DNA from: Octopus sinensis
Lineage: Eukaryota
Assembly (NCBI RefSeq): GCF_006345805.1
Contig: NC_043004.1
Span: 35,216,001 to 35,280,000, forward strand
DNA length: 64,000 nucleotides
Direction: 5' to 3'
The notes under the pieces are model-generated. The model did not search any database, was not told the origin of the DNA, and saw nothing but the letters and a program-made list of their open reading frames with translations. This document shows positions 1-59,795 of this stretch, piece after piece; position 1 is the first letter of the stretch, and each line of letters starts with the position of its first letter. A program made the translations under genes and the position numbers.

Positions 1-708
1 AATTCATCTGGAACCCTCATCATCATAACCAACAAAGTGACAGTCCACATATACATAAAAATATATGTATTTATATACACACACACACACATATATATAT
101 ATAGGTATATGCATATGTATATAAATGCAGTCAGTTTATATAAAAGAAAAAAGAACTTATAAAGTGATCATGCTTGTGTGCAATGTTGGTTCTACGTAAA
201 CTAGAATATCAAAAGTAATATGAAAAGATTTTGAAAGTGAAAAACATTAAGATGAAAGAATCGCTTTAAGAAATCAAAATTAAAATAACTTCCACAAAGA
301 AGAAAGTCTACTGAAAGAAACCAATATTTTATACAATGTAAATGGAATCCAAATTTGTGTTTGTTCCAAGTCATAGCTACGGAATTGGATGATATTAAAC
401 TTCCTCTGTTTGAAATGAGTGCTTTGTCTTTTCACAATAATAAGAAATCCTGAACCCATGACATTACAGCATTTTGGTTATTTCATTATAAACACAAACA
501 CACATTGTTATATTTTGGAAGAATCACTGTAAATACATTTATTTACATACAAAAAGTGAACTATTGAGAAATCTGCAGTTACTCTATCAGATTACAAGTT
601 CAGGTTTATACTTGTGATCGTTGGGGCTCAGGGATATGTAACACATGGCCTAAATACCAATCTTGAGAAATTAGGCTTCTCAAAACCAGAAAGGATAAAG
701 CTAATTCA

Positions 709-1310
709 AAGACTACAGATCCAGTCCTTCACTGGAACTGTAAAAATTTGTAAAACTTATCATTTAAAATATATATGAGCATGAGTAGATATGCAACTAT
801 ATACATGAGAATGCATACATAAAGCAAAACATACAAACCTGCATATATACATACAAACAAAAATACTCTCTTGTTTATATTGAAATTCCAGTGAAGGAAC
901 CTTGAATTTAGGTTAAAAACCAGCTCTTTTCTCTATTGGCAAGAAATCTTGAAATAAAATTGAATAATGACATACATACATCACACACACATGCATACGT
1001 ACATACATATTGAAGACTACAGATCCAATCCATCAATGGAACTGTAAAAATCTGTAAAACTTTCCAGAAGTTTATCATTTAAATATATATGAGCATGTCT
1101 AGATATGCAACTATATGCATGAGAATGCATACATAAAGCAAAACATACAAATTCGCACACACACATACATACATACTTAAAAAGTACCCTGTTGATGTTG
1201 TAGAAATTCCAATGAAGGAACCTTGGATCTAGGCTAGAAACTGGTTCTTTCTCTATTGGCAAGAAATCCTGAAATAAATTGAATAGTGACATAGATACAT
1301 GCATGCGTAC
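709..1310 (+). repeat. Diverged tandem duplication of a ~305-bp unit with an internal inverted segment
   Basis: aagactacagatcc...gaaataaa(a)ttgaata occurs at ~709-980 and ~1013-1300; in copy 1 ccttcactggaa (~727) is the reverse complement of ttccagtgaagg (~886). Confidence 0.8.
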
Positions 1311-1601
1311 GTACAAACATACCAGCTGTAAAAACCACGGATAAGCAGATTTGTGATTTACTAACAATACACGCAGACACACATATTTGAAAAAATTAAT
1401 AAAAGTGACTTTACAGATAATTTTCATGAAATGTTTATAAATTATTAGGTCTTTATAAACACAATTTATTAACTCCTCATAATTCACAAACATCTAATCG
1501 TTAAAGTGGAAAAATCATCAGAAAAACCAATTCTATTCATTTTTTAAAAATAATACTGTTTCAAGGACTGTCTGCTTACCTGTTTATCTATCTATCTATC
1601 A

Positions 1602-1648
<47 letters not shown>

Positions 1649-1713
1649 TAGATAGATAGTTAGATATATTAATATACATGTACACACACTTGCACTAGCA
1701 CCTTCCTTATCAA

Positions 1714-2000
1714 ATCTATATATATAAAGATGAGAATGTGTGTCTGTGTGAATCTCTCAAACATGAGAACTACATACACCAATTTCATTCAAATTTTACA
1801 CATGCCTTACTTAGGGTCCATGTAGGGTCATAGGGTCAAACAAATTTTAACTTCTTGCTTAGTGCGAGCCCAGAGCAATATCATATCTTCTCTACTATTT
1901 TAATATTACGTGTCAAAAGTGAAACAATAACATCTCTCTATTGTAATGTCAGGTATTTCACTTTCATAGTTTAATACTGAAACTATTAAAGTGAAACTAT
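1714..2000 (+). mobile_element. Possible non-autonomous Helitron-like 5' fragment
   Basis: Starts tctatatatataaagatgagaatgtgtgtctgt, resembling invertebrate Helitron 5' ends (from recall); no 3' hairpin/CTRR identified. Confidence 0.35.
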
Positions 2001-2009
2001 TATGTCACA

Positions 2010-2287
2010 TATATACAGGCATACATACATACATATATATATATATTATGCATATATAAATATATGTATACATCTGCACAAATGTATATATATAGATGTG
2101 TATATATATATAGATGTATATATATGTATACATGTTTATATATATATATAGATGTATATGTGTACATGTATATGTGTAGATGTATATATATATATATATA
2201 TATATATAGATGTACATGTAATATGTACACATATATACATGCATACATATATACACCCATACATACACACACACACATATATACATA
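2010..2287. repeat. (TA/CA/TG)n compound microsatellite
   Basis: Directly visible; source of spurious YI-rich ORFs. Confidence 0.95.
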
Positions 2288-2430
2288 GGTGCAGGTGTGG
2301 CTGTGTGGTAAGAAACTTGGTTCCAAAACACATGGCCCTGCATTCAGTCCCACTGTGTGGTGATTTTGCATGTCTTCTGCTATAGCCTCAGACCAACCAA
2401 AGCTTTGTAGACAGAAACTCAAAGAAATCA

Positions 2431-2469
<39 letters not shown>

Positions 2470-2660
2470 GTGTGTGCGTATATGTATGTACGTATGTATG
2501 TATGTATGTAAGTAAGTGTATGTGTGTGTCTTTGACTCTGTGTTTCTCCCTCATCACTGCTTCGCAACTGCTGTTAGTTTATTTACATCCCCATAACTTA
2601 CTGGTTTGACAAGAAGAAACTGATAGAATAAGTACCAGGCTTATCAAAATAAAAAAAAAG
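2288..2660 (+). mobile_element. tRNA-derived SINE family S1, diverged copy
   Basis: gtggctgtgtggtaagaa...cagtcccactg...ctatagcctc...(TG)n...gatagaataagtacc; matches the 13480 copy. Confidence 0.8.
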
Positions 2661-4473
2661 CACTAGGCAATGCCAGATATCTCTGTTAGTACTTTAATAT
2701 AAATATCAAATGAATCTACAGACTACAACTATTCCTCATCCTGTTATGTATTCTAGTCATCTCAAAACTGCATTATATTTACATCCAAGCCAACAATTCT
2801 TTTTCTCTTAATTGCTCTTCAGCCACCCCAGTGATATTTCACAGTCAGCACTTTGCGATCCATCATAGGTCAGTTATTTGCCTCACATATTTATATCAAT
2901 GGAGTCACCTGTGTGAGTTTCAGCATTGCTGCTTGACCAACAAGAAATAACACCCAAAAATCTCTAAGATCACATCTCATTATCTACATTCTGAGAAAAG
3001 AAACTCAGAAGCACAAAGTCTAGAATATTATTATGCAGCAGAAGTCTGCACAACCATGACTGATATATGACTGATCAACAACAGCAATTTTAGCCATTAC
3101 CTTTAACACCTGATTGCTCTCAGCTCTTGTCTTGCACCGTTTCTTTCTAACTTCACCAGCAGCCTTACCTTGATCACCTAGGTAATAAGTCATATCCCAC
3201 ACTTTACACATCAACACATTTCATACATTGTGTTTGTGGAATAGCTTAAAGACCAGCATATCTTATAACATCAAAATATTATATTAAAGATTGGAGAGAT
3301 CATAGAAATGACTGTACCAAGGTAATGGATGCTAAATATAAGTCAGAAATCCATCTAAGCAGTTCAAGGCCTTAATGTTATAGGTGTTCTTACTTCTGTA
3401 GAGGAAACAGAGAAACCAAATAAAAAATCTTTCAACAAATATGCAGAGGAGGCTTAGAAAATGAATATAAAAATTATTATTTGGAAATGGAAAAGCTCTG
3501 GTAAAGGACATAGCAATGTCAATTTGTGTGGAAGAAGGAATGGGAATGCTAATGTTACAGGACTGTTTCATTTATATAGACATACCTGCAGCGTCTTGGA
3601 AAATGGTAGCAAAAGCTGTGAGAGAGCAGAATTCTTGGCCTCAAACTAAATAATACTTTTTTTTTCTTTTATTTGTTTCAGTCATTTGACTGTGGCCATG
3701 ATGGAGCACTGCCTTTAGTCAAGGGGATTGAACCCAGAACCATGTGGTTCGTAAGCAAGCTGCTTACCACAGAGCCACTCCTGCACCTATAATTTGAATA
3801 TGTTACTGCAACATATTGAGAATTGTAAAAATCTCATAACTAAAGAAAATATATTTTAAGTTATGAGAACAATGAATGTTTGTCACTTAAAATTTGTATC
3901 TTTCTCAGGAGGAACATCACAGCAATGCTGTCAGGAATATTGCTGTATTCTTTCATCCATTTTTTACACCAGTTTTTCATGCTAGACTGGGTTAGACAAA
4001 TATGCATCATTGATTTACTGGTCTCAAATCTTGGCACAAGGCCAGCAATTTTGGGAGAGGAGGTAAGTCATTTACATTGACCCAGTACTCACTGGTATTC
4101 CCTCTCTCTCTTTCAGAGAGGCACTGAGCAGCTATACGCACACATACACACACGGCAGTAACTTCCACCTACCGAATTCAATCACAAAGCTCCGGTCGGC
4201 TCGGGGCTATAGTGGAAGACACCTACCCAAAGTGCCACGCAGTGGGACTGAACCTGAAACCATGTAGCTAGGAAGCAAGCTCCCTAACCACACAGCCATG
4301 CCCGATTGATTTTAATAATCCCAAAAGGATGAAAGATTGGGTGGAATTTGAACTCAAAGCATAAAGATAGGTTAAATACCACTAAGCACCTTGCCCACTA
4401 TGCTAACGATTCACTTACCTCACTGCTTTTGATGCCATATATATATATTTATATATATATATATATATATATA

Positions 4474-4775
4474 TTGTGTCTGGAGAGAGCCATATTGTCT
4501 TAATGCCTTTAGACACCATTGCAATTTCCACTCATTTATTATCTATATTTTTTCTACCAATATTTTTGTTGCTTTTGCAACCTTGCCAATGGATGTTGAC
4601 TCTGTCTCATTATTGCAAAAGCAACGAAAAGTTTGGAAGAAAAAATATAAATCAAACCAGTGAGTGTGTTAGATAAGGCATTAAGACAATATAACTCTCC
4701 TCAGACACAACATAATTTGCTTCAACACATGAATTCACATAAAGAATCTTGCACACCAGATACAAAACCAAAGTA
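4474..4775. mobile_element. Fold-back repeat (inverted arms plus one-sided tail), related copy at ~34975-35165
   Basis: ttgtgtctggagagagccatattgtcttaatgcctt ... aaggcattaagacaatataactctcctcagacacaa; the tail aagaatcttgca..cca is shared with the 34975 copy on the minus strand. Confidence 0.7.
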
Positions 4776-7700
4776 TGTGTGTATGGCGTTAGGAAGGACA
4801 TGCAGCCATAGAAACCATGCCACAACAGACAATTGGAGCCCAGACAGCTCCCCAGATGGCCAGCTCCATGTCAAACCGTCCAACCCATGCCAACATGGAA
4901 AACGGATGTTAAACAGTGATGATAACGATATATTACAAGTTCTTCAGTGATGTTTTTATAACTGATTTGGTTTACGTAAGACAGTCAGTTAGAAGACTTT
5001 GGCCGTGTAGAGTATAAACCACTGAGTATCTTAACTGTACGTCATACAAAGAGATGCATGTTTGAAGATACAGTGACATGCCCAAATAAGTATGTAAAAT
5101 CTTTATTCAAAAACCAGGAATTCTGAAAAATATATGTACTAGCATCAGAAAATTCTCCATTATTGAACTTAAAGTAGCTGATCTTCATTGATGCCATAAC
5201 TTTTTATGTGATAAATCTTACAAACAATAGTTGTTCCATACTAAAATTCTATACTGCTTCATCTTAAAATGACTTCAACTTTCAGGCATTCATTATTTTT
5301 GTCGGTACCAATTCCTATTGTTTTGTAGGGAGAGAATGCCATACACTGTTTGGTATGACTAAAGTAAAAAGACTGTTCCAACCGAGATAAGTTAAATGGT
5401 TCAAAGCAGACAACAAGAAGTTGAAAATCTCTTCCATTCACGCTGGTTACCAATATGTTCGATGAATAGATGTTGAATCAAAGTTGTTCAAAGCAAGATT
5501 CTTTCATCAGAAGCCACATTCTTGGAGAAGAAATGTAGCACTAAAAAGAGAAAAGTAGTTTATGTCTAAAATGGAGATAATTGCTTGCATATCTTATATG
5601 CTTGAACTCCTGTAAACATGAAAGATTCCTGTTTTATCCATTGCATTCATTGTAAAGGGTATCATGAGAGAGAAATATGCCACTATGCTTGCAGAAATAT
5701 ATTTTTTTAAACTGTTCTATGAAATATAGATGTCTGTCAACCTGAAAGAATATCAGGGCGTAAAAACTTAAAAGCTTGATTTCATAGCTCTTTTTATCTG
5801 ATTCTATAATTGGACAATATAATAGGAGAGAAAAATATTTTTCTTATGGTAAAGGGACATAACTGACAGAAGTTTTCTCTAGTAAAGAGTGTTCGTTAAA
5901 ACATGAAGTTTCCACTCTCATAATATTCTTTGAATTGATGCAAACAGCCAATAGAATACAAGAATTCTGGTAGTAATTTTTGTGATAACTGACATAAAGA
6001 AATTTTCACACGTACTAACTCTCACATACACACACATATATAGCTAGTATATTTTGTCAGTAAGTCTTAATGCTTGGTATGTAAAAATAAGATACTTGTA
6101 ACCTAATAAGATGAAAATATAGTCAGAGTTGTTTCCCTTGATCTTCCTGAGAGAAATTATCATTAGATAATTGTCATTTTTTTTTCATATGCATGTAATT
6201 TCTAAAGATTGAAAAATGTTGTTCTGTTAGTGCCTTATCCCTAGTTAACTGTGTGTGTGTGTGTGTTTATTACTACAGTTTAAAAAAATGATGATGATAT
6301 CCCTATGTCTACAAATTCCTGACAACAATTTATTCTGGTTCCCTCTGGCACATCTTAAGAAGGTTAGGGTCACGGTTGGGGTTTTTCTAATTAAATTGCT
6401 TGTCTAATTAAAATTAGCTGTTGAGGAAGAATAGGAGAAAGAGGCTTTCTCTGAATAGAAAGCCAGTCAATTGCAAGATTAACTCCAAGGAACCACTGGT
6501 ATTCATTTTCAGCTCAGTGTAATGAAGCAAGTAAAACAAATGTTTTTACTCAAGGATAAAATACATGGAAAATGGTTGTTATTTTGAGGGACAGACTCAA
6601 AAGTTGTACATTTTATAAAAGTTAGCCATTCAGAGTTCAGTGTGTTGAGCCATTATTGTTTTCTAACAGCTTCTCAGGTATTCCCTAGTCATTAGAATGA
6701 GATGAGATAATTTGAGAATGGAGTGGAAGGAATGATGTGATTAGAATGATACCAAAAATCTCAAGAATTCCAATGCTGTGAACAGTTTTCCAGAAGGACT
6801 TTTAATGACAAATATGAAAATGGTTTCATTGATGCAAACAACAGGTAATCTAATGCTCAGGTCTCAGACAATTTGTCATCAGTCTTCTTGCTAATTGCAA
6901 TCTAGATTTACAGGTGCTAAAGAGACAGCAAAACCAAAGAAGTTGTGTAATATCTGAGAATTATGATGAGTAAAGTGCATATTATTAAATGGAAACAAGG
7001 AGCAGAGGGCTGGTTGGATGGATCCTGAAAATATTGAAAGCAAGCAAACAAGAAATAATGTTGCTTCCATGGGTGTTGCTTCTTGTTCTCAGTTGTCAGG
7101 ATTACAGCTGCTGTTTTTGGTCTCCTCGTAGTGCCAAGATAACTTTTGAATTTGCAATGTCCTACCAGTGTTGTGCAACTAATTATTTTAAGTTGCTTCA
7201 TCAGAGTATCAACCAGATCATCAGATGCTGACATACACCGCTGGCCACACTGTGCTTCCAATTCTGTCTTGATCATATCATTCTTTTCTATCTTGATACA
7301 AATTGTTTAACTAAATCATATTCATGTCATCATGGAGGCCTTCCAAGTGGCCTTTTTCACTTTCTTGGATACCACCACTCTGCAACTGCACAGGTCCACT
7401 TGTTGTCTGTGAACTTTGCAACTTGTCCAGTCCAGTGGAACTTGTGCTTTTAGTATGCTGCTATCACATCATTCCTTCCACTCCGTTCTCTAATTATCTC
7501 ATTTTAAATACATTCTCAAAGTTGCTTCATACTGGAGAATAATACTACTGACTTTTCATGTGGGATGTTCCATATTTAGATTGCTTCTTTGGCAATTAAG
7601 GCTTATATATGAGCCTCGAATTAGACAGAGACTTAGGAGTGACCTAACTTACACTTTCAACAAGTTTGGCCTGAAAATCATAGTTTCCATCAACATAGCA

Positions 7701-8996
7701 GTAATGCCAAAAGGTCTCTGCTCAAACTCTGAAGATCTAATGAGGATGACAATCAGAAAAGTCAAAGTAATTGTAAAGTGAAGAAAAATTGCCTAATTAA
7801 TGTTGACTCTCTAATTCAAAATTGCCTCATTAAGGGTGATTGTCTAATTAAAAATTGTTTGTATAATGGTAACTGTCTAATTAAAATGATCATCTTTACT
7901 TCTAAAGTCACAATCCTAAACTAAAGTTAAAAGTCTGAAAGAAACAACACAAGAAAATCAGCTTTGGTCAGCAGAGACATGACCACAGACAATCCAACCA
8001 CAACGTTCTTGTCCCTTTAGATCTCTAAAGAACAAGCTGTGACTTGTTGGAATTTGATTACTCTTTCTAGCAAGTCTAGCAACCAAATAGAGGCTTCTTT
8101 GCTGATCCAAGTGAAGATAGCCCTGACAGATGTGTCTTCAACTATGAATCTACATTCATGTTAGATAAATAAAATGTACAAATGCCGTACTTGAAGATAG
8201 ATGTGTAGGTTCTTGTCGAGGGTTATCGAAGAGATTGCAGGTTCACAGTCTGAAGAATCAAGATCTTTGTAAACCGAGCAATTTCAACTTTGTAGAAATG
8301 GAAAATGATTCCTCATGCAGCATTTCAATATACTGCAGACCAAGCAATACCAGAATGTAACCATATTAAAATGCTGTTCTAAGAAAATATTCTCCATGTT
8401 AAGTAAAGCTCAACTGATCTCCAGGAAGTAAACAGCACTCATTTGATCTCCATGCTAAATGTCAGCAATGTATCTCCTTACCATTTTGAAACGATTTCTT
8501 CATTGAAAATGTCATTTCATGAACACCTGACCATTATGCTTTAATAGACATTAATAACAGGTAAAGTACACACACACACACACACTCACATGTGTGTATA
8601 CACTCTAGCTCAAGTATTATAAACTATATATGAAGCAAAATAAAGCTGCAACTCATTCATTAAAAATATGTGTGTGTGTTCTTTTATTCTTTTACTTGTT
8701 TCAGTCATTTGACCGTGGCCATGCTGGAGCACCACCTTTAATCAAACAAATCGACCCCAGGACTTATTTTTTGTATGAATCACACTTATTCTATTGATCT
8801 AGAAGACTAGTCTGTCAAAGCATGGCTGTATGGTAATAAGTTTGCCTCCCAACTACATGGTCCTGGTTTCAGTTCAGTCCCACTGAATAGCACCATGGGC
8901 AAGTACCTTCTACAATAGCCTTGTGTTGACCAAGAATATTCAACAGATAGAAATTGAAAGAAAGTCATGGAATATACATATATATATATATATACT

Positions 8997-9297
8997 GTGT
9001 GGAGGCGCAATGGCCCAGTTGTTAGGGCAGCGGACTTGCGGTCATAGGATCATGGTTTCGATTCCCAGACCGGGTGTTGAAAGTGTTTATTGAGCGAAAA
9101 TACCTAAAGCTCCACGAGACTCCGGCAGGGGGTGGTGGCGATCCCTGCCATACTCTTTCACCGCAACTTTTTCTCACTCTGTCTTCTGTTGGCCTGCTCG
9201 CTTAGCCAGTGGGGTGGCGTCATTTGAAGGCTAAAACAATGTGAAGCGCATTGTGACCAGCGATGTGTAACATCTGATAGCCTGGTCGGTCACCATG
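8997..9297 (+). mobile_element. tRNA-derived SINE family S4
   Basis: A box tggcccagttgttagg and B box ggtttcgattccc followed by a GC-richer body; flanked by (TA)n. Confidence 0.75.
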
Positions 9298-9523
9298 ATA
9301 TATATATATATATATCAATAATACAGTGATTGTTTCTTGTCAGGAACAAAAAGATTAATAGGACTGCTATAGAAGTGCTCTATTGAAAGAGACAAATATA
9401 TCAAACTAAAGTTATTGAACAAACAAATGCAAGGTCATCCGCATAGCATTTCATAATTCGAACATTTAATCATAGAATATACATATAAACATCCCGCGAG
9501 ATAGTTAAACAATGATGATGATG

Positions 9524-9892
9524 ATATGGTGTGTTGTGAATCTATGGAAAGAAATCCATAAAACTTAACAATTTTGATAAAAATGGAGAAGAGAATGTGT
9601 TAAAATATATAAGAGAATTTTAAATCATGCAGACGATCGTTTCGTACAGAAATATAAAAATCATGCAAATTCATGGTTGAACAAAATTAATTTAATTAAT
9701 TATATATCACAGTGATACTTAATTCAATTCAATTCAACCATGATTTTTCATGATTTTTATATCTCTGTACAAAACGATCGTCTGCATGAATTAAAATTCT
9801 CTTATATATTTTAACACCTTCTCTCCTCCATTTTTATCAAAATTGTTGAGTTTTAAAGGGATTTCTTTCCATAAATTCACAACACACCATAT
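9524..9892. repeat. ~370-bp imperfect palindrome (fold-back)
   Basis: atatggtgtgttgtgaa...(centre tatcacagtgata)...ttcacaacacaccatat; the arms pair over most of their length. Confidence 0.9.
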
Positions 9893-10339
9893 ACAAGTAT
9901 TATTTTCATATTTGCAATTTTACGCCAGTAAGCTACCAGCAAAATATGAAGAATCTATATTAGAAATCTTTTTTTTTTTTTGAAACCTCGAAATTAAAGG
10001 ATGAGTCTAATTCAACCTTTTTACACACACCATACATATATATGTATGTGTGTGTGTGTGTGTGTCCTCCACCACTGCTTGATAACCAGTGCTGGAGTGT
10101 TTACTTCCCCGCAACTTAGCAGTTCAGCTAAAGGGAATAACAGAATAAGTCGTAGCCTTAAAGAAAAGAATAAATACTGGGGTCAATTCATTCAATGAAA
10201 ATCTTTCAAGGCGGTGCTCCAGCTTGGCCACTGTCTTATGACTGAAACAAATGAAAGATAAAAAGAGATACCAGAGATTTCCAGAGAGTTTTTCACGAAT
10301 GTAAAAGATATCATATTTCCTTTACACAAAGACAAGATT

Positions 10340-10665
10340 TCTGTGCCAGTGACACGTAAAAGGGCACCATTTGAGCATGATCGTTACCAGCGTCGCCTTA
10401 ATGGCACCTGTGCCGGTGGCATGTGTAAAAAGATTCAAGTGAGGTCATTGCCAGTACTGCCTGACTGGCCTCCATGCCGGTGGCACGTAAAAAGCACCCA
10501 CTACACTCTCAGAGTGGTTAACGTTAGGAAGAGTATCCAGCTGTAGAAACTCTGTCAGATCAAGATTGGAGCCTGGTGCAGCCATCTGGTTCACCAGCGC
10601 TCAGTCAAAATCGTCCAACCCATGCTAGCATGGAAAGCGGACATTAAACGATGATGATGATGATG
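10340..10665 (+). mobile_element. Repeat family S3 (RTE-type 3' tail / SINE with internal tggcacgtaaaaagcacc repeats and (GAT)n tail)
   Basis: ttaggaagagtatccagctgtagaaac...ccaaccatgctagcatggaaagcggacattaaacgatgatg. Confidence 0.85.
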
Positions 10666-11748
10666 GTTTGTAGATTAACAAATTATATTGAAATAATAAA
10701 ACATTGACAGTAATCACTTAAAGATAACTTTTTTCTGTAATTCTAAACCATTGTCGGTAATTTTATAATAAATAAAAAAATAGGTCTATAATAATTCATG
10801 AGTTTCGAACTACTTACGGACGGACACTTTATGTTAAATAGTGTCAGATTTAGCAAGGGAATTCTTTTTAGTAGATACTTGGTGGTAATTGAGAAGAATG
10901 GTTTACTTATCACATCCCTGATAAATGACAATAGATTTCTAGTTCAACTGTTATGTCCAAAAAATATATGAGGTTTTAATTGAGAAATTGTAAGTTTAAT
11001 TTCATTTTCCTTAACCTTATAAAACTATAATGAGTTTGTGTATGTGGGAAGCATTTTATATTGATTAAAATAAATTGCCAGATTACATTCAATTTGGTTT
11101 AAAGTATTTCATCAACAATAAACGAGGAGAGTCTTTAATATTTGAAAGATTTGTTGGAGATCATCAGCTAATTTATTTACTAATAACAACCTATTAAGAA
11201 TATCATTTTTCTTTGAATTAATTTTGATTTCTTTTATTGAATTTCATACATTTTAATTACTATTATTCTCAACAAAGTGTCATAAATATTACATTTTTTC
11301 TATTATAGGTAATTAAGGAAATTACATAGATATTGATAATTATCGAGTCATTCATTTATGCTGGAACAGTCCCTAGTGTTGAGTTACGATTTATAGAAGA
11401 TATATCTTCCAAGAATATAATCTAATATCTTGGTGCTAATCTATTGTCTCAATCTCATTTTCATCATCTTATAAATGTTTATCAATTCCAATATTGATTG
11501 GTTTTGAAACAATATTAAATATTAATTTTATCACATTCAATCTGAAGTAGTTTCTCCTGATCTTAAAAAGTGATTAGCAAAACATGTTTTTTAATCCCTA
11601 ATTAAAATAAGTTAGGAATGAATTTCAACAAATTTAATGTAATAATGAAATTGAAAATACTTGTCCTGATAGCCATTTCAAACACACAAACAAGCTCTTG
11701 TTTTGTGATACAATATATTATCATCCGATACAATGAAATATTGATTCT

Positions 11749-11955
11749 TTAACTCTTTAGTATTTAAACTGACCGCCAGTTTTAGGTTCAACCTGGCCAG
11801 CTCCAGCCTCTCACACCTGCCCTACAATGTCATTCATGAAATAAACAATAACATCATTGAAATCTGAAAGCTGTGAGATAATGATTGATTATATCAAAAC
11901 AGTATGAATAAATAAGCATTACATTTGGTAAAGTAATCTGAATGCTAAACGGTCA
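11749..11955 (+). mobile_element. piggyBac-like MITE, diverged copy
   Basis: ttaactctttagtatttaaac...aatgctaaacggtca; homologous to 52313-52531. Confidence 0.65.
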
Positions 11956-13479
11956 GAATACAATAAAAAGTTTATGAATTGTTCAAGAGATTTACCAAGA
12001 CATGTGTAACCTGGTCACTGAAACAATTCCATCACAAAATAAAATAAAAGTGAATATAAAATGAGTTAATGTGGAAGAATTCTTATGATTCTTTTACTAT
12101 GAAATGGTTTTAGTTTTTATTACAAAATATTTGGGTTTTCAGATATTACTGAAAGCAACCACCTTGAATACATCCACCCACTCTCGTGAAATGGGAGTTG
12201 CCATGTTGTTCTTTTACAGCATGACACCTGATCAGTTCTCTTCCCTTCTTTCATTACCTTTACATCTTCTAGCATAAAACCACCTCCCACTCCACTGTGT
12301 CCCCATCCTAATCAAAGGAGACCTTAGTCTGCAAGTTTCTTGGTGACCTCACAAGAGCTGGTGCCAAACCACTTAAAAAAAGAGAAAAAGAGGGGAAAAC
12401 AAAAACCCAACAGTACACTCTGTAAAGTGGAAGAACATCAGGCCATAGAAACCATGCAGAAGTAGACATTAGGCATGATGCAGTCCTGGGATCCATTAAA
12501 TCCTTTAAAATAATCCAACTGATGATGATGATGACTAGGATCTGAGGAATATTTGGGTTTTTTTTTTTATTAGAGGTAGCTAAGCAGTCGGTTTTCAGAT
12601 TTCATTAGAAACAAAGTTGAACAAACTAAGAAAACACTTCAAACATTTCAAAAATAAGATCTTTTTCTCGTCTGTCAACTCAAACTGAACTCTGGTTGAT
12701 TTATTTTAATTCTAAGAATTGCTCTACTAGTCTATGCAAGAGAAGAGAAGACTAGATGACAGAATACATCTACAATTGTATAGCAAGTCATTCAGGCCAC
12801 AACGGAACCTCTCAGATAAAGCTAAAACCACATTGTATGAGGTAGTTGAAATTACATCATGGTTGAGAAGGCGAGAGCTAAAACATCTTTGATCTTGGTT
12901 GACCAGGGTTGAATGGAGGTTAAAATCTTTACCACTACAACCAGCCAACCAGCAGCAACAATATAATAATAATAATAATAATATTCAAATACATTCTGTA
13001 GATAATAAATCACCTTCTAGCAATATGTGACATACATAAATCTCAAACTGTAGAGACAAGTTGATTAAATTTCAGTTGGAATTTGGTCAAAAAATATGCA
13101 TTAATAATCAACTATAATACTTTTCTAAATTTTTGGAAATAACTGAATATATTTAAGAACTAAAATTGTTCTTCTCATATGTCTTGGTGTTAACTCTGTT
13201 ATATTTACGTCGTATAAGATATTTACTTCATATTTTTTATAATAGTCTCTTTTTTTTTTTTAAACCTGATATTTTGGGAGACATGCTAAGATGTAAATAT
13301 ACATAATTAAATAGCCATAAATGCACATTTAAAGTTTTCATTAAATCAAACAACTTTGAAAACTATGAATAATATATTAACATTTCAGTTTATATCCAAA
13401 TCATAAATATACTTCTTTACTTTGTAGTTTCAAGTATTCTACCTTGTAGTATCTATGTACATGTAGTATTTTCGTGCAT

Positions 13480-13895
13480 AGGCACAGGAGTGGCTGTGTG
13501 GTAAGTAGCTTGCTTACCGACCACATGGTTCCGGGTTCAGTCCCATTGCATGGTGCCTTGGGCAAGTGTCTTCTACTATAGCCTCGGGCCGACCAAAGCC
13601 TTGTGGGTGGATTTGGTAGACTGAAACTGAAAGAAGCTCGTCGTATATATATAAATGTATATATATATATATATGTGTGTGTGTGTATATATGTTTGTGT
13701 GTCTGTTTGTCACCCAGCATCTCTTGACAACCGATGCTGGTGTGTTTACGTCCCCGTAACTTAACAGTTCGGCTTAAGAGACCGATAGAATAAGTACTAG
13801 GCTTACAAAGAATAAGTCCTGGGGTCGATTTGCTCGACTAAAGGTGGTGCTCCAGCATGGCCGCAGTCAAATGACTGAAACCAGTAAAAGAGAGA
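13480..13895 (+). mobile_element. tRNA-derived SINE family S1, near full length
   Basis: A box tggctgtgtggt, B box gggttcagtccc, internal (TA)(TG)n, 3' end aatgactgaaaccagtaaaagag; more than ten partial copies in the window. Confidence 0.9.
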
Positions 13896-13967
13896 GTAGT
13901 ATTTGTGTGTGTGTGTGTGTGTTTAGCTCGCCCCTCTCTCCATCTTTTATATCGAGTCATCTTCTAC

Positions 13968-14285
13968 TGTGAAGGAGCATGGCTTAGTGGTTTGGGTATT
14001 TGGATCACAATCCTAAACCCATGAGTTCAATTCCCAGCAGTGTCCTTAAATGAGAAGCTTTATTTCATGTTGCTCCAGCCCAGTCAGCTGGCAAAAATGA
14101 GTGGTACCTGTAATGCAAAGGGTCGTCTTTGTCACAGTCTGTATCACACTGAATCTCCCTGAGAATTATGTTAAGAGTAAACATGTCTGTGGAGTACTCA
14201 GCCACTTGCACATTCGTTTCACAAGCAGACTTTTCTGTTGATCAGATCAGCTGGAACACTTGTGCGGTGGTGTCGAATTGTTACC
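13968..14285 (+). mobile_element. tRNA-derived SINE family S5
   Basis: tggcttagtgg...gagttcaattccc...cagctggcaaaaatgagt...ctgtggagtactcagccac; copies at 33076 and 53197. Confidence 0.8.
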
Positions 14286-14292
14286 AGACTAC

Positions 14293-14574
14293 AGTTCCAT
14301 ATTTAAGAGAAGAGGAATTATTTACATTTGATGGATATTTGTCCTCATGGTGTAGTGGTTAAGAGCACAGGTTACTAAACCCAAGATTCTGAGTTCGATT
14401 CCAGGCAGTGACCTGAATAATAATAATAATAATAACGTTGAAAAATACCTTAGGAATGAGAACCCAAGTTCAAAACTTCCCCAAGTCACCTGATGAAGGC
14501 TGAAGGGTATATCAGCCGAAATGTGTTAACAACAAACGAGATGAGGACAAATATCAGTCAAATGTAAATAATGT
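14293..14574 (+). mobile_element. Family A unit: inverted tail fragment + tRNA-like head + (AAT)n + hammerhead
   Basis: 14293-14348 is the reverse complement of the family's 3' tail; 14347-14574 matches the Penelope terminal repeat at 58091-58436. Confidence 0.85.
14484..14527 (+). ncRNA. Minimal type-I hammerhead ribozyme (family A), small deletion in stem III
   Basis: cac-CTGATGA-a-GGCTG aagggtatat CAGCC-GAAA-t-gtgtt. Confidence 0.65.
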
Positions 14575-15469
14575 TCCCAGACTAGTTTTATAGCATGCCA
14601 ACTGATGGCAGCACATGGTTGTGTACGCGGTGAAAGCAAGCAGTGACCTTCATGAGGCAGTATGTTGAGTGACAGCCTGTGTTTACTTCACAAGTTGTGA
14701 AATTTGTGTTTATGTTGTCACATATATGCTGTAGTCTGTGATTTTGTCATGGAGAGGAACAAAGAACCAAAGTGAAATTTTGAATTAAACTAGGAAAATC
14801 AGCTAGGGAGACAATATTATGCTTCAGCAAGCATGCAGCAACGAGGCTATGGGTTGCACACAATGTTTTGAGTGGCATGGGTGCTTCAAAAATGGAAGAA
14901 TGTCCCTGGAAGACGATGAACGATCTGATGGACCTGCAAGGAGTGGCAACATCAGAAATGTGGTATTGGGCAGCAAGAATTCATTCTTCAGGGCCAGACC
15001 ATCAATCAAGAGTTCTTCTGCAACATTTTGAAGCATTTGAGGGAAGGAATTTGGTGAAAGCGATCAGATCTGTGGAGCAAGAATTGCCTCTTCATGACAA
15101 CAATGCACTCTGTGACCGAGCATTCTTCATTCATGAGTTTCTCACCAAAAACATTGCTATTGCTTCTGCACCCAACCGATTCACCAGATTTAGCACCTGT
15201 AGACTTCCAGCTCATCCCCAAGATAAAAATGCAACTCAGCTTAAAGGTTGTTGTTTTAACACTGTTGTTGAGATCCAGAATGGATCGCAGATGGTCCTTG
15301 ACTTGCTTACATAAAATGACTTCCAGACCAGATTCCAAAAGTGGCAGGCAATACTCTGGAACCAGTGTATTGCTGTGCAAGGTGACTATTTCAAAGGAGA
15401 TGATTTTAAAACTTAGGTAAATAAGTTATATTTTAATAAACATAACTAGTTCGGAACCCTTTTGATACC
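14575..15469 (+). mobile_element. Internally deleted, decayed mariner transposon
   Basis: HTH-like QCFEWHGCFKNGRMSLEDDERSDGP and catalytic remnants LHDNN and HPTDSPDLAPVDF; terminal gttcccagactagtt / aactagttcggaac inverted pair. Confidence 0.85.
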
Positions 15470-15703
15470 TATTTCTTTACTACCCACAAGGGGCTAAACA
15501 CAGAGAGGACAAACAAGGACAGACAAACGGATTAAGTCGATTATATCAACCCCAGTGCGTAACTGGTACTTAATTTATTGACCCCCCGAAAGGATGAAAG
15601 GCAAAGTCGGCCTCGGCATAATTTGAACTCAGAACGTCATGGCAGATGAAATACCGCTAAGCATTTCGCCCGGCGCATTACGTTTCTGCCAGCTCGCCGC
15701 CTT
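15470..15703 (-). mobile_element. tRNA-derived SINE family S2 inserted in the mariner terminus
   Basis: Reverse complement of ggcggcgagctggcagaaacg...gagttcaaatt...cctttcatcctttcgggg; flanked by duplicated acccttttgatacc. Confidence 0.9.
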
Positions 15704-16564
15704 TACCCTTTTGATACCACTATCCTCATAACTGACTGACTGCCTGCCACCCAGTATTTACTCTGTGGTTTACCTCAGATCTGAGCCATCTGGACTTCTC
15801 CTTCTGGACACTTTTTCTCCTGTAAACACCAACCTCATTATGATCACCAATTGCATGAATTTTTAGGAGAGGAATGTAGTTTGTGCTTTGGTGCTAAATG
15901 TCCTTTCTTCTCTGATTATTTACAGAAACTTAGACTAGATTTCAATCCCCAACTCCCACTGTTTTCATTGGCTCTCCCTTATACTCAAGAAAGATATGTA
16001 TGTTGCACTTTCCACTTCTCCCTCTGTGTGGTGGGTTGCTCAAGTAAATAACTCCTGGACCAGATGCAAAATGCTTAAAAATACTAAAATGTTAGCCATC
16101 CATGTTGCTTGCATTAAAATCCACCACATGTGTTTCTTTGTGTATTTGGTCAGTATTTGAGAGGCATCTATGCGCTTAACTGTTAGGAATCCATATCAGG
16201 TTACATGTAAATGTCATATGGGATAGTAAGGGACCTAATTCACAGAAATATTCATTTAATCTCAAGAAACAAAATTTAAGCACTAGTACCTACAAATAAT
16301 CAACCATAAACACCAAACATTACATAATGACTAAATAAAACATTTATCAGTTTTCAGTTAACTCATAAAGTATAGATACGGTTGCTGTTCTACTCTAGAG
16401 TGTTTAACATTTTGGAATAATCTAAAACCACAAATATATGAACAACCATTTGTCAATCAAATTTTGAACACTACTGCAATTACTGGTACTAAGTTGATAA
16501 AATTAACTTACTACCAATGAGTTGATGGTAAATTAGTAGTTAATAGTAAATTAGTAAGTTAATA

Positions 16565-16840
16565 TCATGCCATGCTACCCTAGACTGATGACGAGCAAGA
16601 CTCAGAAACATGTCTCTGGATGCAGGCCTAGCTGTTGGGGGTACTTGTCTCCCCTTCGCAAATATAAGGACACAGGAAATGTGTCAAAGCCGACAGGAAG
16701 AGTCGATGCTTCCTAGGGCTAAATAGCGGTGGTGTGATTCCCTTTACGGGACTGTCACATTAAGTTGACAGTATACAACCACTCTATCATTCCACCACCG
16801 GTCATATCTCTCTGAGATATTTAGAAATTTAATATTTCTA
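16565..16840 (+). mobile_element. Family B hammerhead-containing retrozyme-like element with 12-bp direct repeats
   Basis: agtaagttaata at 16553-16564 and 16841-16852; HHR near the 5' end; body homologous to 62480-62690. Confidence 0.8.
16580..16619 (+). ncRNA. Minimal type-I hammerhead ribozyme, core intact
   Basis: ctaga-CTGATGA-c-GAG caaga CTC-a-GAAAC-at-GTC-tctgg; stem I ctaga/tctgg, palindromic stem III ACATGT, GUC cleavage triplet. Confidence 0.85.
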
Positions 16841-18824
16841 AGTAAGTTAATAACATTAGTAGAATGTTAAGCTAAAAGCCTTACAGCAAAGCCATATAAA
16901 AGCAGATCCATCAGTCTGGAGGTCTTGGAAAGCAAAGGAGGAATTTATGAACATCAGACAGACCCATTTCTTTAAAACAAAGCCCAAAATACAGCCTGTT
17001 TGAATTTTAACATTTCCCCTTTTCTTATCTTGGAATCCAAAACAAGTCTTGTTCCATTTTGCACTGTTTCCCTCAGAAGCTCTACTCACCTAGTTTTATT
17101 TTATCTTCTAATTTCCAAAGAGAAATACATTGACTTTTATTTCAACTTTCTCAAGATGACAGAATAAATATCTTTAATATTTCATAACTAGATTTTACTA
17201 AATGTTGGCACAAGGACAGCTATTTTGGCAAAGGGGCTGATTCAATTACATCAACCCCATTGCTCAGCTAATACTTATTTTATCTACCCCAAAACAAAGA
17301 GTCAACCTTGGCAGTATTTGATCTCAGAATATGTAGCTTGATGAAATTCTGCTAAGCATTTTGCCTGGTGTGCTAACCACTCTACCAGCTCACCACCTTT
17401 GAGAATTGTTGTCTAAGTATTTAATGGTAAGTGATTATTGAAAGCAAATTGTGCTTAGTCAAAAGCATTGTCAGTGTTCCATTGTTATGAATAATAGTTA
17501 AGGATTATTGCTGATGCAACCAGAGGACATCATCTGTTTCTCCATTTAATGAGACATTTTCCTACATAACAACCTTTCACATGTCATCAGTGACATGTCT
17601 TTTGGTCATTAAGTGTCTCAGAGCTTTCAACAGTATATACACCCTTATCCAGGTGATAAAGTTGGGGTTGATCAAATACCTGTTTGTATCCAATTATTAT
17701 TACCCCTCTACTTCCTCCCCAACTAACCCCCAGATGCTCTTTTGTTAACTTGTCCTTGTGATGCCAAACATGATGTTTGTTTCCCATATTAATTCTTGCA
17801 AAGATGGTGGCAAGCTGGCTGAATTATTGGCATGCCAGGCAAAATGCTTAGCAGCATTTTGCCCATCTTTACTTTCTGGGTTCAAATTGCACAGGGGATA
17901 AATTTTCTTTTATCCTTTCAGGGTCAACAGAATAAGTATCAGTTAAACACTTGGGGGTTCAAAGTAATTGGCTTACCCCCTCCCCACAAAACTGTCAAAA
18001 TTTGAAACCAATATTAATTTTTTGCAACATAAATAATTTTTGTGCAACTTATTCAGCAGAAGACATTTCTACCAAAACAGTTCCTGGTTGCAGTCTGAAG
18101 TTATGTCACACATTAAAAATAACTTTTCAGACATTTGACTTTGATATACCACATTAAGGGGCCAATATGCAGCCATCGTAAAAATACTACATCTGATTAT
18201 CTTTACAAAATGCAATGTTACCTCCCAGCTGTATCTGATTAATTTCATAATTAGTTTCATAATGAAAAGTGTCCATTAATTGTTTCCGATATGACAAGAA
18301 AATAATTATCTAACTCGATTCATGAAATGACTTATTGATAGCCTTACATTTCTAAATCATTATTTTTAACTTTCATATAGCTCTCCTCCCCTCAGTCCAC
18401 TTATTAACATTCATCACTGCTCCTTATTATTGTCTAACCCTTCTACTATTAACCATCCCTCTCTCTCTCTTCCTCCCTCCTTCACTCTATCACCATCCAC
18501 CACTCTCCCCTCTCTTCCACTAATCATTATCTCTACCAACATGCCCTTACACCCTTCATCCGCTCTTAGTTTTTCTTCTGTCATTGTTTGCTTTTCTAAT
18601 CATCTTGGTGCTTACATTGCCTCGTGCAACCAGTTTCACCATAGACAAGTAAGGGTTCCAAGATAGAACACAATCTCCCTAATGCTGGTGCCATATTTAG
18701 ATGTATTCACTTTGAAGTGGGTGGCAGAAAACAGGGACTACATCAGGTCAATAGGACCTTTTGGTCTTGTCATGGACACGATAAATTCTTTAGTACTTCA
18801 GCCCGAATAAAATTCATCCAGGAC

Positions 18825-25654: not shown

Positions 25655-25770
25655 ATACATATATTATATACATATATATATACACATATATACATACTAT
25701 ATATATAATACATATATATATATATACATATATATATATACATATATACATACATATATATATATATCTA
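25073..25770. repeat. ~700-bp (TA)/(TACA) compound microsatellite
   Basis: Directly visible. Confidence 0.95.
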
Positions 25771-25774
25771 GTAT

Positions 25775-26298
25775 ATTATATAAAAGGGCTTAGTAAAATA
25801 AATTACTTTGCCACATACTGAACTCATTAGAAATAGTAGCTAAAAAAACTTTTTTAAAACTATTTCTAATACTTAAAGAAAATCTCTCTAGTGTTTACTG
25901 ATTTTAACCCACGCTGGTGGAAAGGGGAGAGCAGAAATTCTTCGCTTGCATATTTTGGATTTGCTGGCACTGATAGTTCGAGCAGATCTTCAGAAGCGAT
26001 AAGAAGCCGAAAGGGTATGCTCCCACTTTCAGTGTTTTCAAATCCGAACCAAGGAGTTCTGAGCTGACGAAAGAAATGTCGATTTGACTAATCTAGAAAC
26101 GTACGTTCTCAAATACCTTTGCATTTGATTTTTAATGTCTTTACCCCCATACTTTTGTGAGTTGAATTGAGCAAACACTATATGAGAGAGATTTTCTTTA
26201 AGTATTAGAAATAGTTTTAAAAAAGTTTTTTTAGCTACTATTTCTAATGAGTTCAGTATGTGGCAAGTAATTTATTTTACTAAGCCCTTTTATATAAT
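25775..26298 (+). mobile_element. Family C element: ~115-bp inverted arms enclosing a hammerhead
   Basis: 25775-25889 is a near-perfect reverse complement of 26185-26298; HHR at 26060-26111; embedded in (TA)n. Confidence 0.85.
26060..26111 (+). ncRNA. Type-I hammerhead ribozyme
   Basis: tgag-CTGACGA-a-AGA aat GTC gattt GAC taa TCT-a-GAAAC-gtac-GTT-ctca; stem I tgag/ctca, palindromic stem III AACGTACGTT. Confidence 0.8.
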
Positions 26299-26394
26299 GT
26301 AATAATTTGAATTCGCCTTAAATGGTCCCTTGCATACTGAATACTTGTGAAATTGATTAATAATTAATTAATTTTACCCTCAATTGTTGAAATT

Positions 26395-26960: not shown

Positions 26961-27679
26961 TCACTCGTATGATGGTGGTGTGCATTTTACGACTATTACC
27001 TAGTGTCAAAAAAAGGGCACACACACACACACACATAGGCTTCTTTAAATTTCTATCTACTATCCATTCTCAAGATTCTAGTCAAAGTGTAGAATACACT
27101 TATCCCGCAATATCATTCTAAAAATAAGCAATCACACCTTTGAAATCCCTAAACTATAAGATAATTCATGATTAATTTTAAAAAATGTAAATGACAAGCG
27201 TTACATTTGACAGTAATACACTTACTCTGAGTGCCATGCAGTGGCACTGAGCCACAGCTGTGTCTACATATTTCAATATATGGAAGTCAATGAGGAAATT
27301 CATATTGTGAATATCCAGGCTACAGTAAAGTTTACAGGAATAAAACTTTTCTGTAACATGACACCCTTATGTGCTTAATTTTGATGGTCACAATCATGGA
27401 TTTAAGTTTAGAATGTTGCTCAAAAGGAAGCAGTAAAGCTTGACACATAATGTCTGTTTGGTATAAGCTGTGAGTCATTTGAACTCTTGTGGGATATTTG
27501 GTAAAGAAAAATGAAGACGATTCTTCTTGGCCAAATGATATTTTGGAAATAGCAGTCAAATTTCCTTCAAATCGTGACCAACTCTCTTAAATAAGGATGC
27601 ATTAAAGACAAAGTAGTTGAGTGACATACATCTAAAACTGACATGATGGTCACAACTGGAATGGCTTTAATCCTATATC

Positions 27680-27891
27680 ATTCAGATTACTGTCAAATGT
27701 AACGCTTGTCATTTACATTTTTTAAAATTAATCATGAATTATCTTATAGTTTAGGGATTTCAAAGGTGTGATTGCTTATTTTTAGAATGATATTGCGGGA
27801 TAAGTGTGAGACACTGACTCTGGCCAGTTTGGGCATAAAACTGGTAGAATATTTCAGCCAGATATGGCCAGTTTAAATGCTAAAGGGTTAA
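27680..27891 (-). mobile_element. piggyBac-like MITE copy
   Basis: Ends gtttaaatgctaaagggttaa; homologous to 52313-52531. Confidence 0.75.
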
Positions 27892-38720: not shown

Positions 38721-40090
38721 TTTGGTATGAGCACAAACCACAGAGTGTTAGTCAGAGACTAGTAATATCCTCTGGGATCTCCCAATCCAAACAGATCAGG
38801 TGCTGGAGCATAACAGAGTGGACCCAATGGTGGTGGACAAGGTACACCATATATGCGATATAGTTGATGCTGCTTGCCTTTTTGACCCACAAATAGTCAA
38901 AAAGAAAGATGAAAAGATAGAGATACAATCCTCTTAAGTATGAAATAGCCTGGCTATCTAAGTATTAGATAGCTGAAAAGAATGAATAACATGGTACCGT
39001 AGGCTGGAGGTAGCAAGCATGCTATGCATGCAAGACTCCAGGAGCTCCAACAAAACCTTTGATGAAGAAAAAAAAAATAATAATAATAAAAATGCATGGT
39101 AGATTCTCAAAGATAGTTGCAGAAAGGAAAGCTGAAAAGGGGGGCAGAAAGTTTGTTAGTAATAGCATAAGATCAAGCATTAAGGTCTAATTGGATAAAA
39201 GCCAAGATAAACAAAAACCAAGTAGATTCCCAATGAAGATTATGCAAATCAAAAGAGGTAAGCGTTACTGATATGGTAAGTGAATGCAGCAGGCTGGCAG
39301 AAAAAGAATACAAGAAAAGACATAACAACCTAGGGAGAGCAATCCACTTGGAACTATATAGAAAGGTAGGATTTGACCATACCGATAAATGGTATAAACA
39401 TGAACCTAGTAAAGTACAAGAAAGTAAGAAATACAAGATGTTGTGTGACTTTAATATTCAGACTGACAGAGGAATAGAAGCTAGAAGGCCTCATTTAGTA
39501 GTAGTAGATAAAGAGAATAGAAAGTGCCAGATAACTGACTGTGGTGAGCTGGCAGAATCATTACCACGCCGGGCAAAATGCTTGGCGGTATTTCATCTGC
39601 TGCTACGTTCTGAGTTCAAATTCCGCCAAGGTTGACTTTGCATTTCATCCTTTTGAGGTCGATAAATTAAGTACCAGTTACGCACTGGGGTCAGTATAAT
39701 CGACTTAATCCCTTTATCTGTCCTTGTTTGTCCCCTCTATGTTTAGCCCTTTGTAGGCAATAAAGAAATAAGATAATTGACTTTACAGTCCCAAGTGATG
39801 GAAAATTAATATGAGAGGTATAGAAAAAGTAGCAAAGTGCCAGGACTTAGCCATTGAATTACAGAGAATATGGAAAGTGCGGGTAAAATGTTTCCCTGTA
39901 GTTATAGCTGCATTAGGAACTATCCCTAAAAGTTTGAACAGATGGAAATAGGCATAAAACCCAGTAGAGCTCCAGAAAACAGTGTTATTAGGGACAGCTT
40001 GGTTACTTAGGGGGTTTCTTGGCATCTAAGCTTACTAGTTGCAGCCTGATGTTAGGAATTTTTATTTTCCAACAGTCTAATCTGTTGTAT
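38721..40090 (+). mobile_element. Two tandem 5'-truncated R4/Dong-like RLE retrotransposon remnants in (AAT)n
   Basis: ILWDLPIQTDQVLEHNR..; SECSRLAEKEYKKRHN...WYKHEP...DFNIQTDRGIEARRPHLVVVDK; each starts after an AAT run; second copy split by an S2 SINE. Confidence 0.85.
39541..39771 (+). mobile_element. SINE family S2 with TSD
   Basis: TSD gataactgact / gataattgact. Confidence 0.9.
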
Positions 40091-50335: not shown

Positions 50336-50695
50336 TTAATAATAATAATGGTTTCAAATTTTGGTTCGATAAAGATGTAAACAAATGAATATCTTATAGA
50401 GCCTCTACAGAATGTTTGCCTCTTAGGAACACGAAAAATCATCAGAAAGGTTTTGAACACTTGAAAGATTATTGAAAGCTGGTGGATCTAAGGTTAGGGT
50501 ACAATACAAGTAGTTTTAGTGGGAGGGGTCAGTTGATTAAATAAACCCCTTCCTCGTGCTTGACTGATTCTCTGTTTTATTGTCCTGGCAGTATTTGAAT
50601 TGAGAATGTAAAGAACCAGAACAAATGTGAATAAGCATTGTGTCCAATACACAAACAACTCTGCCATCTCACCTTCATGACAATGATGATGATAA

Positions 50696-51550
50696 TTGAA
50701 AACGAATGAAACTGAAAAATAGGTGGGTAAAGAAAAGAATGCATGGTCAATTTCATAGGGATGTTGAAAAAAGATGGCTGTGGATGACTAAAAGTGATTT
50801 AAAACCAGAAATGGAGACTCTAATGTGTCTGCCCAAGAGCAAGCAAGCACTAAAAACAAACTACATAAAATACAGAATAGACAACACAGCAGAACGTGAT
50901 AAGAGCAGAATCTGTGGACAAAACGGTGAAACCGTATGGCATATTACCAGTCAATGTACACCACTAGCCCAGAAGGAATATAAGAGAGGCCATGACAATA
51001 TAGCAAGGCTTGTCCATTGGATACTTTGCAACAAGTATGGACTTGACAGAGCAAAACATTGGTACAACCACAAACCTAAAGGCATTGTCAAAAATAGAAA
51101 TGCAAAGATCCTATGGGATTTTATGATTCAGTGCGACCATGAGATAGAGAATAGGAAGCCAGACATAGTCTTAATTGAGGAAGAAAACAAACTATGCTGG
51201 ATCACAGATATAGCATGCCCAGCTGACAAGGTATGCGATAAGGAAGAAAGAAAAGTCGAGAGATATGACAGGTTAGCTTGGGAAGTTAAGCATTTGTGGT
51301 TGATGAAAAAGGTAGCAGTAGTACCAATAATTGTTGGAGCCCTGGAAACAGTGAACAAAAATCTCGAGAGGTATGTGGAACAAATAGGGGCTGCAATAAG
51401 GGTGGAGCACTTGCAGAGAACAGCACTGCTTGGAACCGCCCGAATACTCTGGAAGGTCCTTGAAAAATAAGATGTGTTAACTTAGTTCACTGGTAGTCAA
51501 CAGCTGACACCATAGTACATCTCCAGCGTTAGAAGCTGTGCAAAGGCAAT
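50696..51550 (+). mobile_element. 5'-truncated R4/Dong-like element; open 254-aa C-terminal ORF (50706-51470) with zinc knuckle and RLE endonuclease
   Basis: SRICGQNGETVWHITSQC (CCHC-like), RGHD, ILWDF, RKPDIV...DIACP, PIIVGAL, ALLGTARIL; flanked by (GAT)n. Confidence 0.9.
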
Positions 51551-52312: not shown

Positions 52313-52531
52313 CCCTTTAGTATTTAAACCGGCCATATCCGGCCAAAATAGTTAATCTGTTTTATGTTCAAACTGACCAGATCCAGGCTCTCACACCTAC
52401 CCTACAATGTTATTCTACATTAGGTAATTACACCATCAAGATCTTGAAGATATGAGATAATGCATGGTTAATTGAAATCAATGTGAATCAATTAGCATTA
52501 TGTTTGATAGAATAATCTGAACACTAAAGGG
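52313..52531 (+). mobile_element. piggyBac-like MITE
   Basis: TTAA|ccctttag ... ctaaaggg|TTAA. Confidence 0.85.
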
Positions 52532-52559
52532 TTAAGGCAATGATGATAATGGTAAAGAT

Positions 52560-58435: not shown

Positions 58436-58464
58436 GTGGGCAATTATAGAGTGAATTTTAGGGC

Positions 58465-59764: not shown

Positions 59765-59795
<31 letters not shown>

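Follow-up and report, generated by a model that had tools for sequence, protein, structure and literature searches.

The window, by which we mean the whole 64,000-nucleotide stretch of Octopus sinensis DNA that was analysed, contains at 16565–16840 an element that we interpret, with a probability of about 0.7, as one dispersed copy, less than a unit long, from an animal non-LTR retrozyme family that is moved by Penelope-like machinery. The copy comprises about 276 of the about 350 nt of a unit, is non-coding, flanked by a target-site duplication (TSD) and present in high copy number, and carries a type I hammerhead ribozyme (HHR) motif with family-wide covariation in its palindrome; this upholds the retrozyme-like reading of the preliminary description, and in its sequence features the element matches an animal non-LTR retrozyme. 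The features of the element and of a diverged relative in the same window are:

16553–16564, unstranded: left TSD AGTAAGTTAATA, which closes a degenerate 18-nt host tandem (16520–16564)
16565–16840, plus strand: body of the element, 276 bp with 44.9% GC; non-coding and belonging to a high-copy family
16569–16627, plus strand: type I HHR (constrained fold); family contigs align from 16569–16573 onward
16569–75/16622–27, plus strand: distal helix of helix I (constrained fold)
16576–79 and 16620–21, plus strand: internal loop 1 (constrained fold)
16580–84/16615–19, plus strand: stem I, four Watson–Crick pairs and one U·G (constrained fold)
16585–16591, plus strand: core CUGAUGA, C3–A9 (from the sequence)
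16592–16604, plus strand: stem II region, 3 bp GAG/CUC (16593–95/16601–03) with loop CAAGA
16605–16614, plus strand: GAAA (16605–08), palindrome ACATGT (16608–13) and GUC (16612–14) (from the sequence)
16630–16820, plus strand: structured body with helices that covary relative to the diverged relative
16821–16841, plus strand: AU-rich terminal hairpin ending in TTTCTA(A), the 3' end common with the relative
16841–16852, unstranded: right TSD, the first A of which is possibly common to the element end
61506–62701, plus strand: diverged relative (from nhmmer, period and TSD)
61506–61518: left TSD of the relative, 13 bp
61516–61628 and 62177–62202: inverted 5' piece of the relative, interrupted by a later repeat
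62201–62690, plus strand: tandem of the relative, 1.4 units with a period of 353 bp
62430, plus strand: degenerate HHR of the relative, A·A at 10.1–11.1
62689–62701: right TSD of the relative, 12/13 identical to the left

The direct repeats AGTAAGTTAATA are exact 12-mers with 276 bp between them, as had been described for an element of ~275 bp, and 15 of 16 positions match on extension. Exact repeats of at least 12 nt occurred by chance in 26 of 2000 random site pairs at 288-bp spacing, and in 6 of 2000 without simple repeats. The host tandem roughly continues once the element and one repeat are deleted, which favours a true TSD. Both junctions were recovered in contigs of sequencing run X1, possibly the source sample itself; the contigs show no empty allele, those of X5 leaving places near the junctions uncovered and those of X9 lacking the flanks, and neither a head-to-tail joint of a full unit nor an empty site is among the 15 of 30 contig joints listed. 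The preliminary characterisation as non-coding and hairpin-rich is borne out by a longest open frame of 49 aa and by a predicted fold (z = −2.76) that is better than that of 198 of 200 shuffled sequences and equalled by two. The element lacks terminal inverted repeats and does not end in a poly(A) or microsatellite tail. Neither it nor the 353-bp unit contains a reverse transcriptase (RT) or GIY-YIG open reading frame (ORF), or a pol III B box on either strand with up to one mismatch to the consensus.

Every invariant base of the HHR core is present, together with the GUC and the palindromic ACATGT, and cleavage is predicted from the sequence between 16614 and 16615, that is 3' of the GUC at C16614, as originally proposed. 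The motif had also been called minimal, a label that is wrong in view of its canonical helix layout. Minimal HHRs have a helix II of 7–8 bp and little or no helix III (PMC4209133), with a short helix I and a poorly defined loop 1 (PMC4209133, Cervera and de la Pena 2014), whereas the layout found here is that of a type I HHR, in which helix II has 3 bp, helix III is reduced to 2 bp with a palindromic loop, and helix I contains an internal loop and a distal helix. The further description as intact holds for the core bases and the GUC but not for position 10.1–11.1 above the 3-bp stem II, where C16592 and A16604 are unable to pair and thus leave a C·A mismatch that the preliminary description had overlooked. 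This is the most conserved HHR pair after 15.1–16.1, and U·U is the mismatch best tolerated there (Perreault et al., PMC3088659). Alternatively, C16592 and A16604 may each be one extra base on either side of a G–C pair; under the definition of minimal HHRs, with G10.1–C11.1 directly before G12, C16592 could be the extra base and G16593–C16603 the pair, yet A16604 intervenes.

A relaxed HHR descriptor, which was written with the element already known, matched four sites in the window and a total of 15 across 200 shuffled versions of it. The combination of palindrome and 5-bp stem I occurred in 0 of the 200 shuffles, and the element HHR is the only one in the window that combines palindrome, 5-bp stem I and GUC. 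The Infernal search suggested earlier as a check did not recover the motif: Rfam models gave no HHR match window-wide at the gathering threshold and none up to an E-value of 10 in 16500–16900, and the 150 of 230 matches listed are all to miRNA models, mostly on TA/CA repeats, with none on the element.

Other HHR-like motifs and repeats occur in the window. Three PLE-type (Penelope-like element) minimal HHRs, which we group as family A, lie at 14490 (+), 37598 (+) and 58209 (−); they have an extra A after A9 and a 6-bp helix II, and the 15–16 pairing is damaged in all three. The copy at 58209 is located about 380 bp downstream of a GIY-YIG-like frame (58587–59108, −) and an RT-like frame (59483–59797, −). 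A further HHR-like motif at 26064 (+) has CTGACGA, A·A at 10.1–11.1, the palindrome ACGTACGT and a 4-bp stem I; the spacer that holds it, 245 bp long, separates inverted repeats of 149 bp with 91% identity (25769–26304), and the whole is possibly another PLE-type or fold-back element. No significant similarity was detected between the element and the pseudo-LTR (pLTR) of family A, the PLE of the window, or the 26064 motif. Decayed frames at 39237–39635, 48636–48971, 49931–50245 and 50700–51470 resemble by eye what we take to be the C-terminal restriction-like endonuclease region of R2/R4-type LINEs; a Pfam search of four window frames, one of them R2/R4-like, gave a single sub-threshold match and none for the R2/R4-like frame. 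Furthermore, the window contains a 122-bp inverted duplication with 100% identity (27096–27217 and 27686–27807), reflecting either a recent event or an assembly artefact, and a local tandem duplication of about 304 bp with 80% identity (709–1321).

The HHR variant was also sought as a pattern in metagenome contigs, where three loci were found (L001–L003) against a rough chance estimate of up to about one match. They show no likeness to the element beyond the HHR core. All three carry palindromes, although the search pattern required none. L001 has a U–A pair at 10.1–11.1, and the mutually related L002 and L003 have A·A, so that an N·A state at this position is not unique to the element. The contig of L001 is AT-rich, and its type I HHR (601–632) seems to be complete, with a long stem I and the palindrome ACGCGT. 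L002 and L003 (both 601–631) have the palindrome ACTAGT about 50 nt upstream of the telomere-like word CCCTAACCC and resemble the ends of telomere-associated endonuclease-less PLEs; L003 lies within a fold-back.

The diverged relative was matched by nhmmer over 62428–62693 with an E-value of 3e-12, and its identity to the element is 57–70%, depending on the alignment. Its tandem consists of 137 bp of a first unit, a 90-bp linker, the decayed HHR and the body up to 62690; the 1.4 units contain one HHR and differ from each other at 6 of 137 positions. Another repeat family (about 61629–62176) has later split the relative inside its inverted piece. TTTCTA(A) forms the 3' end of both insertions, and one or two A of it also belong to the target. 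The unit itself runs on beyond this point, since the tandem continues past TTTCTAA and re-enters the HHR within about 90 nt with no ORF between, and one contig joint (in X1 and X5) runs on from 16841 as TTTT. Unit length, fixed 3' end and inversion are drawn from this one relative locus, giving two insertions in total.

Comparison of the element with the relative identifies the body as a conserved RNA fold. In the helix 16727–34/16793–800, six of eight pairs are compensatory. Of 53 pairs predicted from the present copy alone, the relative keeps 43 (30 unchanged, 2 with a single change, 11 with a double change) and breaks 10; 5.4 double changes are expected (P = 0.006), and 21 broken pairs under the null. 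The reverse test gave four double changes (P = 0.11) and P = 0.002 for the kept fraction, and a consensus fold of 36 pairs, 11 of them compensatory, is derived from the same two sequences and hence not independent. The body motif had 0 matches in metagenome contigs and 0 in viral contigs.

The abundance and variation of the family were assessed from contigs of 4 of 24 runs, with four organism labels, aligned at 80% likeness. In X1, summed contig depth is 47,600–829,000 over the element and 48–51 on the unique flanks; the element-to-flank ratios of about 950–16,600 (X1) and 560–12,900 (X5) are a rough proxy and not a copy number, from which only the order of magnitude (~10^3–10^4) is taken. The depth profile is alike in all four runs, with a rise in the bin 16564–16610 and a fall past 16845. 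A 5' truncation, considered on account of low depth at the HHR, was rejected because troughs in the body are equally low (69,000 at 16801 and 50,000–64,000 at the HHR). In run X12, which is RNA by guess only, the family is covered and the flanks are not, and the element/SINE depth ratio is 0.53, compared with 0.60–0.94 in the other three runs.

Sequence variation among these contigs bears directly on the HHR. The majority letters at 16610 and 16611 are T and A (76, 78, 64 and 71% in the four runs), giving ACTAGT in place of ACATGT, and in X1 the two letters co-vary, with 38,282 of 50,515 in depth and 38 contigs at each site. Both words are palindromic, so the double change keeps the self-pairing that a double hammerhead needs, and the 2-nt loop is too short to close helix III in a monomer. 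The palindrome covariation thus supports selection for dimer pairing in the family. G16618A, present at 41–55%, converts the stem I wobble to U–A. Among the 40 of 145 variants listed, 20 fall in the element, of which 15 are at unpaired positions, four keep a pair and one breaks it; the same 40 contain no variant at the core bases, at 16592 or at 16604. As these variants are apparently ranked by share, no other letter would reach about 40% at the core bases, 16592 or 16604, and if that ranking holds, C·A at 10.1–11.1 is presumably the usual state in the family.

The predicted fold of the present copy is unfavourable for cleavage. In ViennaRNA calculations a slipped helix (16582–87/16609–15), which hides the GUC and C3, has an ensemble probability of 0.95–0.98 in all four sequence contexts, and the active hammerhead fold lies 5.4 kcal/mol above it. 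At the level of secondary structure only, a double hammerhead has −27.0, two slipped monomers −30.2 and a free co-fold −33.3 kcal/mol; such energies ignore Mg2+ and tertiary contacts. Substituting natural letters changes the gap between active and slipped fold to 6.7 kcal/mol for the majority palindrome, to 2.8 for A at 16618 and to 3.5 for both together, and its persistence indicates that the competing fold is largely a family trait, which in the model is worsened by G16618 of this copy. The element has no tandem partner, and the nearest family HHR in the window is 45 kb off and decayed. By itself the copy probably cuts poorly: that its monomer is cleaved efficiently is very unlikely, and a dimer, in tandem or in trans, might be cleaved, albeit with the odds somewhat against it. 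Of nine predicted retrozyme dimers, eight failed to cleave and one cleaved (bioRxiv 10.64898/2026.07.22.740005). The view of this motif as the best candidate for an active ribozyme is retained in one respect, as it is the only HHR of the window with the full set of features, but activity is doubtful in the light of the C·A mismatch, the GUC-burying fold and the missing HHR partner.

PLE insertions are known for partial tandems and inverted 5' copies (PMC8557442), and an anole PLE, PAc, starts reverse transcription at a fixed internal stem-loop, uses AT-rich targets and inserts without the need for HHR cleavage (PMC11167929). The PLE-like anatomy of the two insertions, together with a PLE-like remnant in the window, leads us to propose that target-primed reverse transcription of the PLE type began at a fixed internal site. 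The remnant frame 58587–59108 (−) has a likeness of 0.97 to GIY-YIG/HTH_animal clusters, families that are found on 19–38% of the cluster members; the PLE-like frames of the window gave no Pfam match.

The observed anatomy, abundance and covariation would be connected as follows. Source loci with at least two units would be transcribed, and by analogy with known systems two HHRs may pair by their 6-nt palindromes, form a double hammerhead and cut 3' of the GUC, after which the monomer may be ligated to a circle. A PLE reverse transcriptase/GIY-YIG nuclease would then bind the conserved multi-helix body and nick AT-rich DNA, and cDNA synthesis would start at a fixed site inside the unit, at the TTTCTA(A) with which the terminal hairpin ends, as the two insertions suggest. 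The cDNA would cross the body and the cleavage site, stopping here 20 nt upstream of the core and spanning in the relative 1.4 units plus an inverted piece, and repair would yield the TSDs of 12–13 bp that are seen. Retention of 50 nt upstream of the cleavage site argues for a ligated circle or an uncut multimer as template, and not a cleaved linear monomer. The present copy is a dead-end offspring of the family.

The fixed 3' end, the inversion and the TSD are equally compatible with a solo pLTR, that is, the 5'-truncated end of an autonomous Penelope-like family with an unseen ORF. PLE insertions are described as mostly truncated and as leaving single terminal repeats with an HHR, and an extra base after A9 followed by G–C is the pattern of their minimal HHRs, in which way C16592 can be read. 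We nevertheless regard this origin as unlikely: in the relative, no more than about 90 nt, with no ORF, separate TTTCTAA from the next HHR (period 353 bp), the HHR layout is canonical in its short helix II and its distal helix I, and the family is apparently very abundant.

Lower still is the probability of an HHR-bearing SINE of the Schistosoma Sm-alpha kind, mobilised by a LINE that recognises its 3' structure. The dispersed, TSD-flanked, high-copy occurrence, the fixed 3' end and the LINE-like fragments seen by eye in the window would suit such an element, and Sm-alpha-type SINEs combine promoter and HHR (PMC6765202), but the element and the 353-bp unit have no B box, a tail is missing, the 3' end shows no similarity to any other repeat of the window, and the relative has more than one unit in tandem, overlapped by an inverted copy. 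We give very little credence to a DNA-level element of MITE or Helitron type, with hairpins acting in single-stranded DNA and the HHR as a fossil passenger; covarying hairpins might be read by a protein on single-stranded DNA and the HHR is a predicted ribozyme, yet the TSDs of 12–13 bp, the absence of terminal inverted repeats, the partial tandem with inversion, and the covariation of palindrome and stem I within the HHR itself are at variance with it. The element fits neither a minimal HHR of PLEs, nor an autonomous Penelope-like element, nor a tRNA-derived SINE. For the preferred retrozyme reading, the sizes of 276 bp here and 353 bp in the relative lie within 150–450 bp at a GC content below 50%, and a type I HHR core and multiple copies with TSDs above 4 bp (12 and 13) are found.

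As a single locus, the element is an ordinary dead-end repeat copy; as a family, it offers several handles, namely a body fold conserved by compensatory changes, a 3' end common to two subfamilies of only 57–70% identity, and a natural hammerhead in which an unusual mismatch replaces the second most conserved pair. Both the mover enzyme of animal retrozymes and its recognition target have been called open (PMC7229834, PMC7761336, bioRxiv 10.64898/2026.07.22.740005). A more speculative proposal, which we think is rather improbable in its entirety, is that the master hammerhead of this lineage is functional despite the fixed C·A or N·A and is restrained by a two-base slip until it dimerises, and that the covarying 3' half recruits the Penelope RT and fixes the cDNA start to a single base within the unit; if true, this would provide the first map, among the papers searched, of a cis-signal that lets an animal retrozyme hijack a PLE. 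No such octopus or cephalopod hammerhead or retrozyme family appears in the titles or abstract openings of the papers searched, and the main text of a 2026 octopus repeat annotation has no mention of hammerhead, ribozyme or retrozyme; the family or the HHR variant may already be listed in the supplements of PMC7229834 or of the preprint, or in Lunse et al. 2017. That retrozymes occur as dispersed monomers and depend on PLEs has been proposed before.

The octopus family shares with Schistosoma Sm-alpha the occurrence of short repeats, dispersed or in tandem, with a canonical type I HHR, and differs in having no pol III B box. With Penelope/Poseidon pLTRs it has in common what can be read as an extra base after A9, a palindromic 15–16 region (PMC4209133), a partial tandem with an inverted 5' copy in an AT-rich target (PMC4209133, PMC11167929) and, as proposed here, initiation of the RT inside the element, at a stem-loop that lies downstream of the HHR (PMC11167929); unlike these pLTRs, it has no ORF, a helix II of 3 bp instead of 7–8, a helix I with a loop and a distal helix, and an extra unpaired A before G12.

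Dispersed retrozyme monomers are evenly spread across chromosomes (Li, Clavereau and Pollet, bioRxiv 10.64898/2026.07.22.740005) and, like the present copy, are taken as non-transposing offspring for which mobilisation by PLEs has been proposed. That preprint covers vertebrates, insects and one coral, with no mention of molluscs or cephalopods in the text consulted, and builds its case for PLEs on pLTR homology and on co-occurrence. The same text does not deal with a covarying body or with the anatomy of insertions as described here, in terms of a fixed 3' end, inversion and TSD.

Animal non-LTR retrozymes have been described from coral, from mussel (350–390 bp) and from axolotl (330/350 bp; Cervera and de la Pena 2020, PMC7229834), where HHR_Amex2 likewise carries a mismatch, U·U, at the foot of stem II and is an efficient cutter only in dimeric form (PMC7229834). 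The octopus element differs from them in being a solitary copy that is shorter than the unit, in its C·A mismatch and in being known from sequence alone. It agrees with them in its type I HHR with a short palindromic helix III, in a non-coding unit of about 350 bp with a GC content below 50%, TSDs longer than 4 bp and no LTR, and in co-occurring with the minimal HHRs of PLEs (PMC7229834).
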